From the IMG/VR virus record IMGVR_UViG_3300025066_000021: DNA of 64,000 nt; one strand, written 5' to 3'. Of this stretch, positions 32,567 to 53,803 are shown piece by piece. Each line of letters opens with the position of its first letter. Within the stretch, counting starts at the first letter, position 1. The notes below the pieces were generated by a model that was given only the letters and a program-made list of their open reading frames with translations, was not told the DNA's origin and made no database searches. This DNA is from an uncultured virus (IMG/VR IMGVR_UViG_3300025066_000021). Taxonomy: Duplodnaviria; Heunggongvirae; Uroviricota; Caudoviricetes. The position numbers and the translations under genes are program-made.

Positions 32567-32639
32567 AGGGGAGTAGCTCAGCGGTTAGAGCATCCGACTC
32601 ATAATCGGCAGGTCGAGAGTTCGATCCTCTCCTCCCCTA
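32567..32639 (+). tRNA. tRNA with CAT anticodon (Ile2-like or Met); CCA not encoded
   Basis: AGGGGAG/CTCCCCT acceptor, TAGCTCAGCGGTTAGAGCA D-arm, CCGA-CTCATAA-TCGG anticodon arm, GAGAG-TTCGATC-CTCTC T-arm; discriminator A is followed by CTT. Confidence 0.93.
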
Positions 32640-32660
32640 CTTTATAGAAAGGAATTATTT

Positions 32661-44644: not shown

Positions 44645-45119
44645 AACCCCAGTTACTAAAGGCGAAGGATGGCAAACCGCTAGACTAAGGAAATCTCTTA
44701 GCGCTCCTATGAGAGCTATCCAAGAGTATGTTAATGATTTGGGATTGAGGTCTTATGTGACCTTGGACTACGGATGTGGCCGAGGCAGCGATGCTGATTT
44801 ACTCAATATGGATAAGTTTGATCCTAATTGGTTTGGACCTAATATCATTACCAGAGAAAACAGGGATGCTTCTAAGGGATATGACATTATCACTAACATC
44901 TATGTCTTAAATGTTATAAAAGACCCGGAATCCCGGTTAGAGGTCCTCAAAAACATACAAAACTTGTTGAGTTCTGATGGCATAGCGTTTATTGCGGTAC
45001 GAGACGACATTCCTGTAAACACAGATACTCAATTTATAGTTGAACCTGATCTGGATCTCATGGTTAAAGTATCCCGGAGATACAGGATTTATAGATTGGA
45101 TAAAACATGCGAACTCTAA
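44637..45119 (+). CDS. SAM-dependent methyltransferase resembling the MTase domain of TIGR04096
   Basis: TAxxRxxLSAPM, LDYGCGRGxD, FDPNW and YVLNVIxDxxxR motifs. Confidence 0.75.
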   Translation: MNKTPVTKGEGWQTARLRKSLSAPMRAIQEYVNDLGLRSYVTLDYGCGRGSDADLLNMDKFDPNWFGPNIITRENRDASKGYDIITNIYVLNVIKDPESRLEVLKNIQNLLSSDGIAFIAVRDDIPVNTDTQFIVEPDLDLMVKVSRRYRIYRLDKTCEL

Positions 45120-45417
45120 TATTATTTGTATTAATCTTTTTTCAAGGGGATTGTGGAGAAATTGTAAACGGATTTACTCCGTTAGTTCTGCATCCCCCGA
45201 CTGTCAAACTAAGTAAGTCGGTTTACCCTAGGCAGCACGTTGGAACTACCAGAGATCCTTTTCTGTGTTTACCAGATTACAGATACGTAGAAAGAACAGG
45301 ACCTGGATACAGATCTAAGTCTTGGAAACCAGTTTATTTTACTAAGCAGCAATACACTATGTATATAAAGCAGCAAACCACGGTGTGTTGGTTACCTGTG
45401 ATGACAAGGAGAACTGA

Positions 45418-46000
45418 ATGAAACACTTAAACATCCCTCATTCGGATCTATTCAAGCCGGTGTTTTACAGAACACCCGAGGACATTTTTTCGGAAGCGAA
45501 ACACCTGCCGATAAAACTGTGAGGCTTGTTATTAATAAAGCTAGTATTTCTAGTAATAGTGTTTTCAGTCACGTCTCTCCAGGAGATCAAGTTATAGAAA
45601 TAGAGATGACTGAGGACCAGTGGAAGAATTTGTTCTTTTTCCAAATCAAAGAATTACTCCGTGTACTATTAAGTGGACAGAAAAAGACGGAAGAATAGAG
45701 GACCCTCCGGAATCAGTCTTCAAATTGACAGAGTGTATCCGAGGATTGAAAAAAGCGTTGCGAGTATCCGAAAAAACAGGGGACATCGCTAAAAGCATTT
45801 TAAACGAGGAGGCCAAGGGCTTATCTGCTAAAAAGCGGGACAGTATTAAAAGAAAGCTTGGGCCTGTCGAATCATCTTTGACTAATAACGGAACTTTTTT
45901 TACTCAAGAAGTTATTAAAACTATTCTTTATCTTGTGGATAATACCGATCAAGAAACCCTGAAAACTTTTTTGGGAAAAGTACTTGACCAGAGTTCCTGA
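45418..46000 (+). pseudogene. frameshifted phage gene
   Basis: Frame HPSFG...FFGS...IEIEMTxxQW lacks an in-frame start and appears to continue in another frame (PCTI) after ~45620. Confidence 0.45.
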
Positions 46001-46089
46001 GTATGTTACACTTTAGATGTGCCTGAGATAAAGAGTTCATCCGGATTCTGATGTGTCTCAGGGATAAGGTAGGGAGGTTCCCTACCCAC

Positions 46090-46221
46090 GAGTCGTCGTG
46101 ACGGACGCTGTTCAGGTGAGATTCCTGGATGTATTGACCGAGACTTCAAAAGCTTGGTTAGTATAGTCTAAGTCGGTTCTTGTGACCGATTGATGAGAGA
46201 GGTTCGAATCCTCTACGGCTC
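46090..46221 (+). ncRNA. oversized tRNA-like RNA 1 (132 nt)
   Basis: 7-bp acceptor GAGTCGT/ACGGCTC stacked on AGAGG-TTCGAAT-CCTCT T-arm; three internal hairpins with G-U pairs. Confidence 0.7.
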
Positions 46222-46227
46222 TTTTTT

Positions 46228-46384
46228 GGTGCATGTCACCTGAAAATACCGAAAGTTCTTCGGGAATTAACGCTTGTGGAGATGTTCCGTTGGGAACGTC
46301 AGTGAAGCAAGAATCTAATAATAGATTTGAATTGAATAGTGCTTAGCACTAAAGATTTAGATTTATGTAAATTTAGAAGAACGG
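46228..46384 (+). mobile_element. non-autonomous IS607 derivative / orphan TnpB omega-RNA scaffold
   Basis: 46243-46384 is homologous to the reverse complement of 50776-50921 (tnpB 3' end and right end), ending ...GAACGG; the 5' part resembles the IS left end. Confidence 0.8.
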
Positions 46385-46482
46385 TTTTTAAGTTACCATG
46401 TCCGCAGAAAACTTAGATACTGTCTCCCGATTTATAGGCGACAAACTTGGCGGTCTAGTCAAATTGAAATCGGGAAGCATAT

Positions 46483-46601
46483 GAGGATGGTATGGCTACG
46501 GGATTCTTTTCTGTTATCGTACCTTGGTTTGTCAAAACTGATGATATCAGGTTATCGTTTATTTTGGTTAAACTCCTTGAAGTTCGATCCTTCACGTCCT
46601 C
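46483..46601 (+). ncRNA. oversized tRNA-like RNA 2 (119 nt)
   Basis: 7-bp acceptor GAGGATG/CGTCCTC stacked on TGAAG-TTCGATC-CTTCA T-arm; three internal arms. Confidence 0.65.
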
Positions 46602-46634
46602 TTATTCCCTTAGGGGAATTATGTTTGCATAAAC

Positions 46635-46673
46635 AAAAAAGACTCTCTTGCCTATCTCAAGAGAGTCTTTTTT
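46635..46673 (+). terminator. bidirectional-type intrinsic terminator closing the RNA operon
   Basis: AAAAAAGACTCTCTTG-loop-CAAGAGAGTCTTTTTT. Confidence 0.85.
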
Positions 46674-46687
46674 CTGTAAAGGAGATT

Positions 46688-46813
46688 ATGAAGAATATCT
46701 TTCCTGTAATATTAATTCTAAGCACAATTATAGCTGGCAGTTTTGTAGGAGAAATTGAAGTAGATATTAACACTAAACCAATTGACAACCACAGTTTAAA
46801 TGTAGTAGATTAA
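46688..46813 (+). CDS. small secreted or membrane peptide (41 aa)
   Basis: AAGGAG RBS, hydrophobic N-terminus. Confidence 0.55.
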   Translation: MKNIFPVILILSTIIAGSFVGEIEVDINTKPIDNHSLNVVD

Positions 46814-47659
46814 TAAATGTAAAACCAGGAACGGAACTTCCGGGTTTTGCGGTTTTGGGAATACGAGCGGGGGAGGGGTCCCCCGCTTTTTTTATTTGCA
46901 TTAAACGAAATGGTATGGTAGTATTAGATGAGTCGAAATAAAGTTGGTTTCTAATCTGGGAGCGGATTTTATAAGACTCAAAACTTTGCTAGCAAGACTT
47001 ACAAAAACCTTGTTAGTAATTTTAGGGTTTTTGGTAGTAATATGTCAAAAACACCAGATCGAAAGAGCCGGAATTTCCGGCTCTTTTTTATTGACCAAAA
47101 ACTTTAGTTACCTTATAATAGAATAAAGGAGTATTTAAAAGAGCAGGTAGCCCAAAAGCCATAGGTAAAACCGGATTCAAATCTTTAACTTATGAAGCAG
47201 AGTTGCCTAACTATGGATCAGACTGTTTTGATGAAGTAATAGTAGACAGACTTCCTAGGTTTGATTTGAGCAAGACTTTTGAAGCAGCAGCATTCTGTAA
47301 ACAACTACAAGAAGCTGAAATTAAGGTTTTAAGACTAGCTTACAAGACTTTTCCTGGTCAAACTGTTTTACCTGAGACAATGAAATTTACTGTTAGTAAC
47401 GAGGGGTATTATGATGAATTTGAAAACCTTGTGGTAACATTTTCTTTCGAGGTAAAAGAAACTTTAGAAGAAAAAGAAAAAAGAGAGCAAACCGCAGTCA
47501 AACGAAAGTTATCAGCAGAAAAAACAGCTAAAACTCGAAAAGACAAGAAAAGGGAAAAACTATTACAAGAACTTAAGGATGATCCTGAATTACTCAACCA
47601 AATAAAAAAGAGTCTTGACACTAAAATAAGTAAGTAGTATAATAAAATAAAGGAGAGTT

Positions 47660-48058
47660 ATGAAAGTACTAATTTTTTTGTTACTAAACACTTTAGCATT
47701 TTCTCAGGGGATTAATCCTGAGAATTATTATCCTCAAACTTATATGCCAATGCCTGTAATGCCGATGTACCAAGCTCAGCCTCAAGCTCCTGTTATAATT
47801 AATATTATTAACGGGCAAGCTCAACCTACACAACAAGCGCAGCAAAACCTCAGGAGACGTGGTAAGAATTTAGGAGTAAGACTCAGAAACATGGGAGCTG
47901 TTTACACAGGGTACTCAGGATATAAACATTACAAGAGAACCGGGGATATCAAGAGCTTTTTGAAAAGCGGTAAAGCTAAAATTGGCGTGGGAACTATGTT
48001 GTTCTCCAAGCCTCTCAGTAAAATTCCAGGGCTCAAGCATTTGTTAAAGCTAAGATAA
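47660..48058 (+). CDS. signal-peptide protein, Q/P-rich
   Basis: MKVLIFLLLNTLAFS N-terminus; own TTGACA-N17-TATAAT promoter. Confidence 0.65.
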   Translation: MKVLIFLLLNTLAFSQGINPENYYPQTYMPMPVMPMYQAQPQAPVIINIINGQAQPTQQAQQNLRRRGKNLGVRLRNMGAVYTGYSGYKHYKRTGDIKSFLKSGKAKIGVGTMLFSKPLSKIPGLKHLLKLR

Positions 48059-48516
48059 TGTTAAGCACTGCTTTCATGTTTATGATTTCGTGCTTTCTTT
48101 GTGTGGGCTACCTGATTCTCAAAAAAAGCATAAACACTCATTTGCTTAATGAGTATTGTAAGCAAGAAATAGATTTTAATGTTTCCCAAGAAATGAAAGA
48201 TCAAGTTGACCAAGTAGCTCGTAGACTGTGGGTTGATTACATATTCGCTGAACCCTATTATATAAATGATTTGAAATACTTTGTTGACGAAGGAATAAGC
48301 TTGGGAACTCTGGAAACTCAGCTAGAACACATAGGAAGCTGTGCTAGACTGTATAGCTATGTTTGTGAGGACTTACTTCCTATAATTCATTTCTTACGAA
48401 ACAAACTTCAAGAAGTTAATATCAAACGAGATCAACTAGGTCTCCAGCTTTTCCAGGACCTTAGTCCCCAGACCCTTTCTTATAATGATGGACCTATCAT
48501 ACTTTTTGAGTCGTAA
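48058..48516 (+). CDS. membrane-anchored protein, tandem paralog A
   Basis: Similar to 48516..48938 (ILKKxIN..LLN..C..EIDF...TLExQL...KLxEVNxKRxQLGL). Confidence 0.75.
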   Translation: MLSTAFMFMISCFLCVGYLILKKSINTHLLNEYCKQEIDFNVSQEMKDQVDQVARRLWVDYIFAEPYYINDLKYFVDEGISLGTLETQLEHIGSCARLYSYVCEDLLPIIHFLRNKLQEVNIKRDQLGLQLFQDLSPQTLSYNDGPIILFES

Positions 48517-48938
48517 TGATAACCACATTCTTTCTATGTATAACCGGGTGTATAGGATACAAGATTCTTAAGAAAAGAATAAATGCTCGTTTGCTTAACC
48601 AATTTTGCATGGAAGAAATAGATTTTAGTATTTCTAGTGAAATGAGAAAAATAGTTAAGGAATCGGCTAAACGAGCTTCTGAAGCCAGTGCTTTCAGCGA
48701 AAACGCTTGGGACCATGATTTACAATATTTTATTACCAACGGAATAAGTTATTATACCCTGGAAAACCAGCTCAAAGAATTAGGGGATTGTGTTAAGTGT
48801 TACTCGCATTCCTGTGCAGACATGGTGCCGATTATTTTTTATTTGAAAGACAAACTCAAAGAAGTTAATACCAAACGAAGTCAGCTAGGGTTACCTGCTT
48901 TACAAGACCGAAGTCCTGAGTCTTACGCCTCCTCTTAG
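48516..48938 (+). CDS. membrane-anchored protein, tandem paralog B
   Basis: Same shared motifs as 48058..48516. Confidence 0.75.
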   Translation: MITTFFLCITGCIGYKILKKRINARLLNQFCMEEIDFSISSEMRKIVKESAKRASEASAFSENAWDHDLQYFITNGISYYTLENQLKELGDCVKCYSHSCADMVPIIFYLKDKLKEVNTKRSQLGLPALQDRSPESYASS

Positions 48939-49540
48939 GCCAACCTTTTTATAAATATATGATAGAAACAGTCTTTGTTATATTTACTGCTCAAGTAATG
49001 ATGTGGATAGGAGCTGGCCATACCGCAGCTAGAAGAGCGGTTATAAAGCGTCATGTCCACGAGAATCTTGACACAACCATACCACCCGACGTTCTTAAAA
49101 ACATGGCTAATGGTATAAAAGAAATAAATAAATTTCCTAGTTGTTTTTCTAACACAATTACCAGTTATGAAAGAGCCCTGGAAAAAGCGCTTTTAGATTT
49201 AATTTCTAAGTCTAAATTTAAACCAGAGAAAATAGGCTCAATAATTGACTTACTAAATGAAAGGTACAATAAAAGTCTTGGCTTGTCTTGTACAAGAAAC
49301 TTTTTTTATAATAAGCGTGACCACGTTATCTTAGAATTATCAAAGTATAAGTATTACGATTAAAAAATTAATAAAATTAATCTTGGAGTTACATTATTCT
49401 ATGAATAAAGATTTTTCCAAAAAGTTTTGCCCAAAATTTTTTTTTGTATAAAACCCTTTTCGGAGTTACATTATTCTATGAAGAAAAAAATCCTGCTCAA
49501 AAAAAAATAATTTGGAGTCACAAATTTCGTTGGAAATTAG

Positions 49541-49996
49541 GCTGACCCGAAAAGTTGGTCGCAGTAAACTGATAACTAGATCCCCCCTAGGCTTCTGGTC
49601 TAACAGATCTGCGGGGTGTTACTCGAAAAGAGCAGTTGACCAAGGGGATAACTCGGAATGCCCAGGAAACGAGTCTTTAGACTTATGGTAGTACTTGCTT
49701 GGAACACTAAAATTCCAGGTGAACATCTTAATCACTGGATTACCGGGGAAAACAGAAAAAAGGATTCTGGCCCCTTACACTACCCTGTAAATACCTCCAA
49801 GTCTTAGTTGAAGTTATTAACGTCCTTAGTTCGCCACACTGACTGAGAAAGACCACGACTACTCTTTCCCACTTGGCCTGTGTAAGGGACCTGCTAAGAG
49901 TCTTTTACTTAGCGAATAAAAAGACTCTTATATCCTTTGCCTTCTTGTTACCTGAGGTGTGCGGGTTCCTGAGGTAACATGAGTACAGTGTACTCA
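49541..49996. ncRNA. candidate large structured RNA
   Basis: About 450 nt, ORF-less, visibly GC-richer than flanks, with a long-range 12-bp helix and several hairpins. Confidence 0.4.
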
Positions 49997-49997
49997 C

Positions 49998-50390
49998 TTA
50001 AACAAACTTTGTCAACTTGTTCTTAATCTTTTGTATTTCTGTTGGAATAGTTGCTCTTCGAATCCACCACTTAATAGAATATTCTGTGATAGTTAATACA
50101 GCAAATGCTAATTGAACATCCCCTAACACAAAATAAAGCAAACCAAAGCACTGAGCGCTTACCCATCCAAAAGTGTAACCTAGGCCACATGTCTTTTCAT
50201 ATTCTTTATCGAATTGATGCTCAGCGTAATTCTCTATGTCCTCTGTTTTAAGTTTAGCTGTATCTTTGATGCTCTCAAGATTAACAACCCCTTCCAGGTA
50301 ATCTTTTTTAAAAGGTTTGTGAAACTTGTGGTGTTCGTATCTATAACAATAAAATAACCACGAGAAGAATAAAAGATATATTGAATGCAT
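49998..50390 (-). CDS. hypothetical membrane protein
   Basis: AAGGA RBS; TAGACC-N17-TATACT upstream. Confidence 0.6.
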   Translation of the reverse strand: MHSIYLLFFSWLFYCYRYEHHKFHKPFKKDYLEGVVNLESIKDTAKLKTEDIENYAEHQFDKEYEKTCGLGYTFGWVSAQCFGLLYFVLGDVQLAFAVLTITEYSIKWWIRRATIPTEIQKIKNKLTKFV

Positions 50391-50808
50391 AGTAATCCTT
50401 AGGTAACTTTTATATAGTATAACCTATTAATTTTAAAAGGTCTACTACTATCAAACCAAAAACCTTAAGGGAAAAACCAGACAACCAGAAAAAACACAGA
50501 GTAATATTGTCCACACCAAAGACTCTCTCCAGCTTTTTATGCCTCCTGATCTGGCTATATTAAAAAGATTGTATATTAAAAACCTTGCTACAAAAATTAC
50601 AAGGCTCTCTAATAGTAATAAAACTATTAATCCTACCATCCTAAACTCCTGTCTAGCTCATTAGTTTGAAAAGGTCTGTTACTATCAAACCAAAAACCCA
50701 AACGAATAATACAAGAGAATATACAGAACAGCAAACTAACACAACCCATACCAACGATTCTCTCCAGTTATTCAGCCGTTCCTCTAAACTTACATAAATC
50801 CATTAAAG

Positions 50809-52050
50809 TCATACAAAAGTACTCCTTTGATTGGAATTATTGTTAGATTCTTGCTTCATAGACGGGACTAATGTTCCATCTCCACAAGCGTTGATTCCCG
50901 AGTGAACTCTCGGTATTTTAAAAACATTATGAAACCACCAGACCAAATTGAGAGCTGCGTTCAGGTCTCGACAGAGGCTTATTCCGCATTCCTCACACTG
51001 GTAAACTCGGGCACTTAATTTCAACTCTTTCTTGACCTCTCCACAGCCTGAACATCTTTTGGAGGAAGGGAAGAATCTGTCCGCAAGGACGATCTCAATC
51101 CCTTCCCAATCACACTTGTACTCAAGCTGTCTTCGGATTTCTCCAAAGGATGAATCTGCTAAACTCCTACTCAGTCTTCTGTTTTTAATCATATTCTTAA
51201 CTGCCAAGTCTTCAACGACGATTGCCCTTGGATTGGTTTTCACCAAGGCAGCAGTCATCTGATGGATAGCATCTCTACGAATACAAGAAATTTGATAATG
51301 AAGTTTAGCTAATTTCTTTTTGGCTTTGGTTCTATTGTTAGATCCTTTTTTCTTCCTACTTAGGCTTCGAGAAAGTCTTTGGAGCTTTTCTAATTTATTT
51401 TTTAAGACTTTTGGATTTTGAAATGGGTCACCTTTTGAAGGCGTAGCCAAGGTCTTAATACCTAAGTCAACTCCTAAGATCTCAGAACTAATTCCTAAAG
51501 GAATTTCTGGGATTTCTTCTTCAACTTGGAGGGAGACAAACCATCTTCCGGCTACGCTGGAAACTGAGGCTGATAATATCTTTAAGTCTTTAGGCAAATA
51601 GCCTTTTTCCTTAACTTTAAGTTTACCTAATCTTGGTAGTTGGATATGGTTTTCATCCAGTACCTTGATTGATCCAGTAAGTCTGAAGCTTTGCTTGGAA
51701 TCATGCTTTGACTTAAATCTAGGGAATCCGGGCTTCTCTCCAGATTTCCTACTCTTAAGTTTTCTGAAGAATCCCTTGTAAGCTTTATCTAAATCTCTTA
51801 GGGCTTCTTGAGGAGCACACTTTGAGACTTCATACATCCAAGGAAATTCAGTTTTCTTTAAGGGATTAAGTTTCTTGTGAAGACTAATAGCATTAAGCTT
51901 CTCTTTAGATTCAGCTTTATAAGCTTCTATTTTAAGATCCAGTCCCCAGTTATAAGTGAACCGAGCTGCACCACAATGCTTTGCAAGCAGAGTGCGTTGC
52001 TTATTGTTTACCTTGAGTTCGGTCTTATAACCTCGGACTATTGTTCTCAT
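50809..52050 (-). CDS. tnpB: RNA-guided endonuclease TnpB
   Basis: GAARFTYNWGL, GFPRFKSK, RuvC residues GVDLG / VEDL / RDLNAA intact, CxxC..CxxC zinc finger. Confidence 0.95.
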   Translation of the reverse strand: MRTIVRGYKTELKVNNKQRTLLAKHCGAARFTYNWGLDLKIEAYKAESKEKLNAISLHKKLNPLKKTEFPWMYEVSKCAPQEALRDLDKAYKGFFRKLKSRKSGEKPGFPRFKSKHDSKQSFRLTGSIKVLDENHIQLPRLGKLKVKEKGYLPKDLKILSASVSSVAGRWFVSLQVEEEIPEIPLGISSEILGVDLGIKTLATPSKGDPFQNPKVLKNKLEKLQRLSRSLSRKKKGSNNRTKAKKKLAKLHYQISCIRRDAIHQMTAALVKTNPRAIVVEDLAVKNMIKNRRLSRSLADSSFGEIRRQLEYKCDWEGIEIVLADRFFPSSKRCSGCGEVKKELKLSARVYQCEECGISLCRDLNAALNLVWWFHNVFKIPRVHSGINACGDGTLVPSMKQESNNNSNQRSTFV

Positions 52051-52661
52051 TTTTTATTCTTTGCTCTTAGAGTAGCGGAACGCTTCCCATAAATCTTATT
52101 ACTAAAGGAGGACATCAAAGTTAAAATATCCTTAACCAGTTCTTCTTCAAAGCTCTTGTTCAAGACTTCTTCTACCCAAACAATTTGAACTCCGTGAGAA
52201 CCAAAGAAGGACTGAAGGAATTCAAAATTAAATCTGGTGAGTCTATCTTTGTGTTCAATGATTACCTTGGTAATATTTTTACTTACTATTAACTTAAACA
52301 AAGCCTTAAGTTTAGGTCTTTTAGAATTCATCCCAGATCCTACTTCTTCAAAACATTGTTTAACTATAAGTTGGTTTTGAATACAGTAATCAAGCAATCT
52401 TGACTTCTGTCTATCTAAGTCTCCCTTTTTCTTTTGGTCGTGAGAAGATACTCTACAATAGATTACTACAGAGTTTTTTCTCTCTGCTAAATTGGGGGTT
52501 AGCCCTTGTAGATTCTGAATGTCAGAAAGCAGGTATCTCCGGTGACCGCCCGCTGTTTTTACAGGAGATATTCTTCCTTCTGCTTCCCAGCCTCTAAGAG
52601 TATTTTGAGACACACCCAGAAGTTTTGCAGCCCTCCCTATGGAAATCAAAACCTCACTCAT
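52047..52661 (-). CDS. tnpA: IS607 serine-recombinase transposase TnpA
   Basis: MerR-like HTH (AAKLLGVS..TLRxW, GGHRRY), YCRVSS, DRLTRF, ELVKD, YGKRS. Confidence 0.95.
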   Translation of the reverse strand: MSEVLISIGRAAKLLGVSQNTLRGWEAEGRISPVKTAGGHRRYLLSDIQNLQGLTPNLAERKNSVVIYCRVSSHDQKKKGDLDRQKSRLLDYCIQNQLIVKQCFEEVGSGMNSKRPKLKALFKLIVSKNITKVIIEHKDRLTRFNFEFLQSFFGSHGVQIVWVEEVLNKSFEEELVKDILTLMSSFSNKIYGKRSATLRAKNKK

Positions 52662-52833
52662 GAGCTTCCTTCATTTTATTAAGAAACTCATCGTAAGTTT
52701 TTTGGAATTCTTCTACAGTAGGTACTTCGCCTTCTTCAAAGGGAACTGGATGAGGAGTAATAGTTCCGTCTGCGAACTCTACTTCATCCTTAGTTACTTT
52801 AATTACTTTCATCTGTAACCTTTTAGTTTTCAT
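52654..52833 (-). CDS. 59-aa ORF inside the IS, coupled to tnpA
   Basis: AAAGGAG RBS; MKTKRLQMKVIKVTKDEVEFADGTITPHPVPFEEGEVPTVEEFQKTYDEFLNKMKEAHE; stop overlaps the tnpA start region. Confidence 0.75.
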   Translation of the reverse strand: MKTKRLQMKVIKVTKDEVEFADGTITPHPVPFEEGEVPTVEEFQKTYDEFLNKMKEAHE

Positions 52834-53803
52834 GATAATCTCCTTTCAAAAGTTATTGTGAAGAAGTTTACCATGTGCTACTATAGTAAGTAAATTAAAG
52901 AAGTATTAGAAAATTGTAACTTTTTGTAAATTTTGGTAGATTTTCAGGCTACTGTCGTGAACCCCCGTACCTATAGACCAAGAAACAAAAAAAATACTAG
53001 AAAAAACAGAAGTAACTAAACCCTCAGAACCTCAAACTATCTTTACCAGTTGCGGTGACCGTGTTTTCATGTACACCAATACAAAGGAAAAGAAAGTTTA
53101 TAGAGTAATTCTTGATAAGATAAGGGTGTTGTTACGAGACGGTGGCTCTGTGGATGTCTATTACTACGATGACACCCGCTCCTTCTTGTACCATCCTAAT
53201 CCAGATCAACTTTACGCAGAAGTGTATAACTGCTTGGATTCAAAGGAAACTTATGAATACAAGTAAACAAGGTAAAATAATAATTGCACTAGCTGTTTTA
53301 ATCCCAGCACTCATTGGACTAGGAATAAAACTATACGACCACAAAGCTGTTTTAACAGAAGCACCTCCTACTAAAACAATCTTCTCTAGTTGTACAAAGG
53401 ATTTATACACAAGAGTTGATACCGAGGACTCAGTAATTTACTTGGTTAAATTGAACCGAGTAATTAAGATACGGGCTTCTAATGGTTATGTGTGTTAAAT
53501 ACATGTCTGGTCACGAGAGTTGTATTAGTAACATAGAGGATGACGGAAAACTTTCGGAAGAAATCTATAATTGTAAGACAGGGTACTAGTGAGATCAAAA
53601 ATTACTTTTCTACAAGCCCTCATCAGTTTCACCGGACTGTTTGTGTCACTTATTTTAAATTCTGAGATGCCAGTTAATATTCATAACACCTTAGCATCAA
53701 TAGGAATTACTCACGGCTTTGTAGGAGTAGTTTTATATTACCAAATCAAAAAACACTGTTGACACTAGATCACCTTTGCAGGTTAATAGAATAAAGGAGA
53801 ACT

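Follow-up and report, generated by a model that had tools for sequence, protein, structure and literature searches.

The DNA analysed here, a stretch of 64 kb that is referred to below as the window, has a G+C content of about 37% with the majority of its ORFs on one strand, and looks like a portion of a large phage or a similar mobile genome. Its genes include those for a CCA-adding enzyme, an RNA ligase and an FtsK-like ATPase, and the sole tRNA gene recovered by ARAGORN at its default settings is a tRNA-Met (32567-32640). It also carries an intact IS607-type element, the resident element, and at a distance of 4.4 kb and in inverted orientation an RNA scaffold of the same type, the orphan, with no genes of its own (Table 1). 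Related loci recovered in the course of the analysis are cited by number (e.g. L026).

The resident element comprises a 59-aa ORF, tnpA, tnpB and an omegaRNA, with the scaffold of the last overlapping the final ~38 codons of tnpB. The RuvC residues D195, E280 and D362 of the resident TnpB are all present and align with the D/E/D residues of the ISDra2 TnpB, the third of which is presumably D361. The ISDra2 TnpB is also its closest natural relative with solved structures (8h1j, 8bf8; E ~7e-64), though it is outranked as a match by the AI-designed nuclease 9yyg (1.1e-71); the ISFba1 structure 8iaz is recovered with an E-value of 2.3e-53. In the published account of ISDra2 TnpB, D191 and E278 are the residues named as catalytic (PMC8612924). 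The 59-aa ORF has counterparts upstream of tnpA in five related loci (L037, L039, L042, L043 and L051) and may be a third gene that this IS607 subgroup conserves. At the left end of the element a G run precedes subterminal repeats (...ATCTACCAAAATTTACAAAAAGTTACAA...) with the repeated motifs ATCTACC, ATTTACA and AGTTACA, of which each right end holds one inverted copy. We infer the left boundary, placed without an empty site, from the alignment with related left ends. The right end terminates in ...GGAACGG at 50776.

Outside this right end, 50417-50475 and 50651-50709 are diverged copies of each other (59 nt, 78%), and the repeated unit in 50410-50749 encodes small hydrophobic ORFs on the minus strand, such that the resident element seems to have landed within or beside a small tandem gene family. 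In a distinct region (48058-49363) three paralogous ORFs of 152, 140 and 134 aa occur in succession with a repeat spacing of 449 nt.

Table 1. Positions of the features of the orphan locus and of the resident IS607-type element in the window
Feature	Coordinates	Strand	Remarks
Promoter-like site (TTGACC, 17 nt, TACACT, with TG)	45984..46012	+	consensus match only
tRNA-like structured RNA upstream of the orphan	about 46090..46222 (within 46003-46222)	+	fold -48.2 kcal/mol, z -2.6
20-mer proposed as left-end remnant	46228..46247	+	no better than chance
37-codon open frame, TnpB C-terminal tail remnant	46233..46346	+	the one open frame covering the orphan
Orphan omegaRNA scaffold / IS607 right end, 148 nt	46237..46384	+	R2 109.9 bits, E 3.7e-26
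Flank that would be read as guide, TTTTTAAGTTACCATGTCCG	46385..46404	+	adjoins the scaffold 3' end; same placement in the resident copy
Second tRNA-like structured RNA, downstream of the orphan	46483..46607	+	fold -36.1 kcal/mol, z -3.1
T-run hairpin resembling a terminator on either strand	46630..46678	+	inverted repeat 21 nt, 90%
Guide-equivalent flank of the resident element, CTGAATAACTGGAGAG	50760..50775	-	
Resident IS607-type element, intact	about 50776-52963	-	
Resident omegaRNA scaffold	50776..50925	-	R2 97.5 bits, E 4.9e-23
Resident tnpB, 413 aa	50809..52050	-	Pfam OrfB_IS605, Cas12f1-like_TNB, HTH_OrfB_IS605
Resident tnpA, serine recombinase with MerR-type HTH	52047..52661	-	Pfam Resolvase 1.3e-21, MerR 2.2e-12
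59-aa ORF upstream of tnpA	52654..52833	-	no Pfam family
Resident left end: G run (tacggggg) then TTCACGACAGTAGCCTGAAAAT	52940..52966	-	start aligned with L037, L039 and L043 left ends

The orphan lies within a 680-nt stretch devoid of credible ORFs (about 46001-46680). It is flanked on either side by a tRNA-like structured RNA of about 125-135 nt, the 3' half of which displays an acceptor-like stem and a T-arm, the latter containing GGTTCGAATCC in the upstream RNA and GAAGTTCGATCCTTC in the downstream one; in the upstream RNA the stem is GAGTCGT/ACGGCTC, and a T run comes after the T-arm. No Rfam family was recovered for these flanking RNAs, and as ARAGORN calls the folds only at very relaxed thresholds they are not called tRNA genes here; they could be decayed tRNAs or constitute an unfamiliar class of tRNA-like RNA, in a phage whose genes also include an RNA ligase and a CCA-adding enzyme. 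Since a promoter-like site precedes the orphan and a terminator-like hairpin follows it, with the orphan itself in sense orientation, read-through transcription is plausible, and judging by this arrangement the orphan would probably be transcribed together with the neighboring structured RNAs.

Covariance model and structure of the orphan scaffold

Relatives were collected by two scans of IMG/VR. A 16-mer common to both window copies recovered 35 loci, 18 of which have an omegaRNA context, representing 14 distinct loci after merging of identical ones, while the TnpB protein recovered 32 loci with 44-58% identity. Twenty-two TnpB-linked RNA regions from other viral contigs were aligned with MAFFT, and the covariance model R2 was built from this alignment; both window copies were excluded from it, a choice made to avoid circularity. 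RNAalifold predicts five helices with 26 pairs in the alignment. Of the 566 cells, 94.5% pair, as against 37-54% when the partners are slid; two-sided changes occur at 24 of the 26 pairs, and none of 500 shuffles reached any of the observed measures of covariation.

When the whole window was scanned with R2 with filters off, two matches alone were recovered, namely the orphan and the resident copy, with the next-best score in the 64 kb being 9.7 bits; a further model, R1, scores the orphan at 131.3 bits. The helices of the orphan are P1 (46249-53/46259-63), P2 (46273-77/46307-11), P3 (46281-88/46293-300), P4 (46314-18/46373-77) and P5, which is the distal hairpin. All 26 pairs are standard in the orphan and 25 of 26 in the resident copy. 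Given its R2 score with every pair standard, the orphan is a complete omegaRNA scaffold, and it presents a clear example of a structurally complete TnpB omegaRNA scaffold without genes of its own. The original prediction of an orphan IS607-type omegaRNA is thereby borne out, the right end being kept and tnpB being absent. Its 5' start is no more than about 6 nt away from where conservation in the family sets in at the 5' side. The model scans revealed no second orphan copy in the window. A CRISPR-like arrangement or mini-array of scaffold ends was also considered and rejected, as there is a single scaffold without nearby direct repeats of it. Neither an Rfam match for the orphan nor a match to RAGATH-18 was detected, whether in the whole window at the gathering score or in 45500-47200 at E-values up to 5.

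The 3' end of the orphan (...GAACGG) is shared with the resident copy, L026, L037-L039 and a Massilia genome. Over the last 25 nt the two window copies are identical at 23 positions (92%), and they have the common ending ATTTATGTAA(A/G)TTTAGA(A/G)GAACGG. A degenerate 23-nt right-end pattern spanning both copies also fits the last 23 nt of an omegaRNA-like region in Massilia arenae (L069 2900-3023), where at two variable positions the right end has one letter from each window copy. From these comparisons the tip of the right end seems to be strongly constrained across hosts. Massilia arenae is a high-G+C betaproteobacterium, and the window an A+T-rich phage contig.

The region 46243-46384 on the plus strand resembles the reverse complement of 50776-50919, i.e. 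the two are diverged inverted copies, the arms recovered by a repeat search being 64 nt (81%), 25 nt (92%) and 16 nt (94%) long. In the first stem (P1) the orphan has CCGAA/TTCGG versus CCGAG/CTCGG in the resident copy. In the second (P3) the orphan has GATGTTCC/GGAACGTC, in which all 8 pairs form, versus GATGGAAC/GTCCCGTC in the resident copy, with 7 of 8 pairs and one A-C mismatch. Identity between the copies is 46/52 in paired positions, 43/59 in the unpaired core and 15/36 in the distal hairpin. The original prediction had interpreted the differences in the stems as compensatory changes by which pairing is kept. The stretches, stems and end sequences that it described are all present at their places and the changes in the stems are real; however, under the R2 structure only 2 of 26 pairs are changed on both sides and 1 of 26 on one side, which 124 of 500 shuffles equal, such that the comparison of the two copies alone is not significant. 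One or two more double changes in the second stem fall outside the model pairs. Pairing is fully kept in the second stem of the orphan but not in that of the resident copy with its mismatch. As just two sequences are compared, these changes carry no statistical weight, and the evidence for pairing is the family-wide covariation.

The orphan is about 70% identical to the resident copy (103/148; 104/147 of aligned positions), 67% to L026 (99/148) and 76% to L015 (62/82), the latter two being copies in unrelated viral contigs. As the resident copy is about as distant from it as these are, it descends from a different IS607 lineage. The orphan was thus not copied recently from the resident element, and the changes between the two arose in separate IS lineages, in agreement with a caveat of the original prediction that the covariation might come from a related parental IS.

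Lost genes, ends and guide of the orphan

Searches of the window with the resident TnpB and TnpA proteins (tblastn) recovered the resident genes and nothing near the orphan. The orphan adjoins no tnpB 3' end beyond a 37-aa tail remnant, which contains SGINACGD and KQESNN, corresponding to residues 384-391 and 399-404 of the resident TnpB. The start of the scaffold corresponds to about codon 376 of the 413 codons of TnpB, 14 codons past the last catalytic aspartate (D362). As the tail remnant begins beyond this last RuvC aspartate, no catalytic part of the enzyme is left.

At the 5' side, the original prediction had noted a resemblance to the left end of the resident element, and from it had proposed an internally deleted element of 157 bp in which the left end is kept. 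The letters in question are present, but the best local alignment of the orphan 5' flank with the resident left end (52963-52940) extends over the 9-mer CCTGAAAAT alone. Of 2000 shuffles, 7.3% reach its score, as do 14% of 3234 other 68-nt windows of the contig, and the 9-mer itself occurs 4 times in the window versus 1.35 times expected. The similarity being at the level of chance, it was rejected as evidence for a left-end remnant. The subterminal repeats of the resident left end are also absent on the orphan 5' side, and the proposed 157-bp element with a retained left end is not supported. In the IS607 element tested in 10.1101/2023.11.20.567912, 40 bp of left end were required for excision. 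With the left end that TnpA would bind gone, the orphan is, by analogy with this element, probably immobile.

The left junctions of the resident element and three of its relatives have GGGG, AGGG, AGGG and GGGG before TTC/AATC, with right ends in ACGG. In the Clostridium botulinum IStron the corresponding motifs are TGGG versus TCGG, and the G at -3 discriminates between them (10.1101/2023.11.20.567912). From the four junctions, aligned by eye without an empty site, and from this one studied element we infer that RGGG may be the motif of this TnpB group. The possible left junction of the orphan is TTGG. As this falls outside RGGG, homing into the empty allele is doubtful, and should the analogy with the IStron hold, an allele without the orphan would escape cutting by the resident TnpB.

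The orphan guide, i.e. the 16-20 nt past GAACGG, is the adjoining phage DNA. The earlier observation that it has no full match in the window stands; apart from the guide itself, the window contains no match to its 16 nt with fewer than 3 mismatches, and with up to 3 mismatches there are 4 matches versus 1.97 expected. For the orphan and the resident guides alike, these searches of the window returned near matches at the level of chance only. A search of IMG/VR with GG and 18 nt of the orphan guide gave 0 matches.

Searches with the surrounding DNA recovered little. Neither a megablast of 45000-53500 against INPHARED, nor an IMG/VR scan with a 25-mer of the right end (0 matches), nor an IMG/VR search for relatives of the upstream gene (45620-46000) gave any match. 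A 25-mer from the left flank likewise had 0 matches in IMG/VR, and in a metagenome collection it recovered one locus (L068), without an empty site. The latter is an 83-kb metagenome contig that equals the window at all 747 compared positions and begins ~3.3 kb ahead of the orphan, and it may represent the same genome in a permuted form or in another assembly.

Gene-less relatives in other viral contigs

Among the 14 distinct IMG/VR loci found by the common 16-mer, tnpB abuts the RNA in six and is separated from it by an ORF in one (L021), and in the remaining seven (L001, L007, L008, L010, L012, L029 and L030) there is no tnpB beside the RNA. The TnpB remnants in the latter range from 0 to 64 aa, though the sequence available upstream in L001 is just 279 nt. 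The gene-less copies are similar to each other over 84-219 bp only, with unrelated flanks, and their matches end at one common 3' boundary or within about 45 nt of it. These counts suggest that gene-less omegaRNA relics of this group are common. A layout like that of the window is seen in L010, a 32-kb contig with a full tnpA-tnpB element and a gene-less scaffold of another subgroup ~2.2 kb downstream.

The seven gene-less loci, from unrelated viral contigs (L007 equalling L019 and L035), form a sister subgroup ending in GGAGTGTCAC, within which a distal stem covaries (CCACGGGG/CCCCGTGG, CCTTGGGG/CCCCAAGG and CCATGGGG/CCCCATGG). L007 and L029 have in common an extra 5' part of ~85 nt with a hairpin and TTGACA. 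Two viral contigs display an additional ORF between tnpB and the omegaRNA: in L057 (2495-4480) this is a 266-aa ORF with a match to LAGLIDADG_3 (E 1.3e-7), and tnpB ends right past the RuvC motif, while in L021 (2955-5437, minus strand) it is a 331-aa ORF without a family. These might reflect the insertion of homing endonucleases into the tnpB tail or the 5' region of the omegaRNA.

As for the tRNA-like surroundings of the orphan, tRNA genes are found in 6 of 39 related loci. The placement of TnpB elements within or next to phage tRNA clusters is a recurrent one: L047 (985-2466) and L056 (79-2456) are placed at the edge of phage tRNA arrays, with 13 and 8 tRNA genes upstream respectively and the arrays stopping 35-45 nt before tnpB, and in L043 (1331-1594) the element lies just after tRNA-Ser genes. 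As tRNA genes are present within the locus in only one of the seven gene-less cases, there is no general link between orphans and tRNAs.

Origin and possible use of the orphan

We favor, with a probability of about 0.65, the interpretation that the orphan is a deletion relic, namely a right end with its omegaRNA module, left on its own, from a second IS607-family lineage. A second element of this family would have inserted into the non-coding, tRNA-like stretch of the phage, and would subsequently have lost its left end, tnpA, and tnpB as far as ~14 codons beyond its last catalytic residue; one deletion, either internal or left-side, would be the simplest route. What remains is the structurally complete 148-nt scaffold, with its 3' end abutting phage DNA that would be readable as a guide. 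The intact resident TnpB, encoded 4.4 kb away, could potentially process and load this scaffold in trans. No sign of any benefit of the orphan to the phage, or of its use as a guide in trans, was found in the sequence analyses, though the better-preserved scaffold and a start near the 5' edge of conservation would also fit selection for keeping it.

Several previously characterized systems provide points of comparison. Standalone omegaRNAs have been reported to work in trans with compatible effectors (Altae-Tran 2021, per PMC10691335). Like the orphan, these are scaffolds without an effector or transposase gene that occur in the same replicon as an effector-carrying element; however, those described in PMC10691335 are evidently mobilised, whereas the orphan is present in one copy, has no sign of mobility and differs in lineage from the resident effector. 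Gene-less elements of the IS200/IS605 type that carry omegaRNAs have also been described (PATE-like; Meers et al., PMC10055086). These too are protein-less, retain the guide-RNA module and have their TnpB encoded elsewhere, but PATEs, as presented there, have retained their two ends and fall into the Y1-transposase (IS605) group, in contrast to the serine recombinase (IS607) of the present case, in which the left end is not demonstrable. The C. botulinum IStron shares with the resident element its gene order, the xCGG end of the scaffold at the GG core and a G-rich motif before the left end. Its scaffold, as reported, ends in UCGG with a GG core dinucleotide, that of the orphan in ACGG; no group I intron is seen here, and the orphan, though it keeps this type of right end, has neither tnpA nor tnpB nor the 40 bp of left end required for excision in that system (10.1101/2023.11.20.567912). 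In ISDra2 (8h1j, 8bf8, 8ex9, 8exa; PMC8612924) a scaffold of ~150 nt, which is close to the 148 nt of the orphan, overlaps the 3' end of tnpB and is followed by a guide of ~16 nt from the flank, as here. As a member of IS200/IS605, however, ISDra2 has a Y1 transposase and a TTGAT motif, as opposed to the serine recombinase and G-rich ends of the present element. Finally, the ISFba1 reRNA (8iaz, PMC11061315) is, like the scaffolds in the window, the guide RNA of an IS607-associated TnpB, but it is described as lying fully outside the coding sequence and matching RAGATH-18, while the scaffolds described here overlap the tnpB tail and lack such a match. Among the matches listed in a literature search there was no paper on phage-borne orphan omegaRNAs, from which their absence does not follow. 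Gene-less omegaRNAs are an already described kind, to which the orphan adds one more case.

One alternative to a deletion relic is that the orphan represents a non-autonomous mini-IS (157-166 bp) in which the tip of the left end has become joined to the right end, and which the resident TnpA would mobilise in trans and the resident TnpB would retain by cutting the empty site. GG indeed precedes the 20-mer GGTGCATGTCACCTGAAAAT, 17 of the 20 letters of which agree with the tip of the resident left end once a gap of 4 nt is permitted, and a microhomology (AAAAT) is present at the would-be joint of the deletion. Precedents exist in the gene-less omegaRNA elements of IS200/IS605 (PMC10055086) and in a mini-IS that was reported to provide TnpB with its guide in trans in E. 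coli (10.1101/2023.11.20.567912). Against this, the left-end similarity is at the level of chance and an alignment of these bases to the tnpB coding sequence is about equally plausible; the TTACA/CTACC motifs of the left end are missing, and so is anything equivalent to the 40 bp needed in the tested IS607 element. With just one orphan copy in 64 kb and a left junction (TTGG) outside RGGG, we regard a mini-IS as unlikely. An inversion between the two copies can also be envisaged, as their inverted right ends (46384 and 50776) bracket 46385-50775 as inverted repeats and TnpA, being a serine recombinase, might use them as sites to invert this 4.4-kb segment and thereby swap the guides. This is a topological possibility only; IS607 TnpA is known to pair one left end with one right end, no trace of an inversion is seen in the sequence, and we consider it highly improbable.

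The completeness of the scaffold, which scores above that of the resident copy, raises another alternative to the relic, namely that the orphan is a selected extra guide RNA for the resident TnpB, expressed from a tRNA-like operon, released by tRNA-processing enzymes together with TnpB and directed at a target other than its own site. Its sense orientation between the promoter-like site and the terminator with tRNA-like folds on either side is in line with this proposal, as is the activity in trans of standalone omegaRNAs with compatible effectors (PMC10691335). However, no target was found in the window, nor in IMG/VR with GG and 18 nt of the guide, and this guide is mere adjacent DNA, as it would be at any right end; we hence hold this proposal, like the mini-IS, to be improbable. 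A broader version, which we consider a rather long shot, is that large phages retain gene-less scaffolds as added guides for their resident TnpBs, with the orphan being a functional second guide and the tRNA-like folds allowing its release by processing of the RNase P/Z type, akin to engineered tRNA-guide arrays. Suggestive of such retention are the more canonical scaffold of the orphan in comparison with the resident one, its beginning almost exactly at the 5' edge of the scaffold, the one common 3' boundary in the gene-less 7 of 14 IMG/VR loci, and the common 5' extension of L007 and L029 with its TTGACA.

If the orphan is a deletion relic and a scar only, it would be of little import, recording a second, older IS607 invasion of this genome and a guide-RNA module that outlasts its genes. 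The independent covariance model and the five-helix structure may in any case help in annotating this group of omegaRNAs in viral contigs, for which Rfam gives no match. If the orphan were a functional second guide, it would represent a step from a transposon towards a CRISPR-like system. Should the resident TnpB load it, a single phage nuclease would be served by two scaffolds of different lineage with two guides, and such a use of two guides, if true, would bear on how single-guide transposon nucleases become multi-guide systems.
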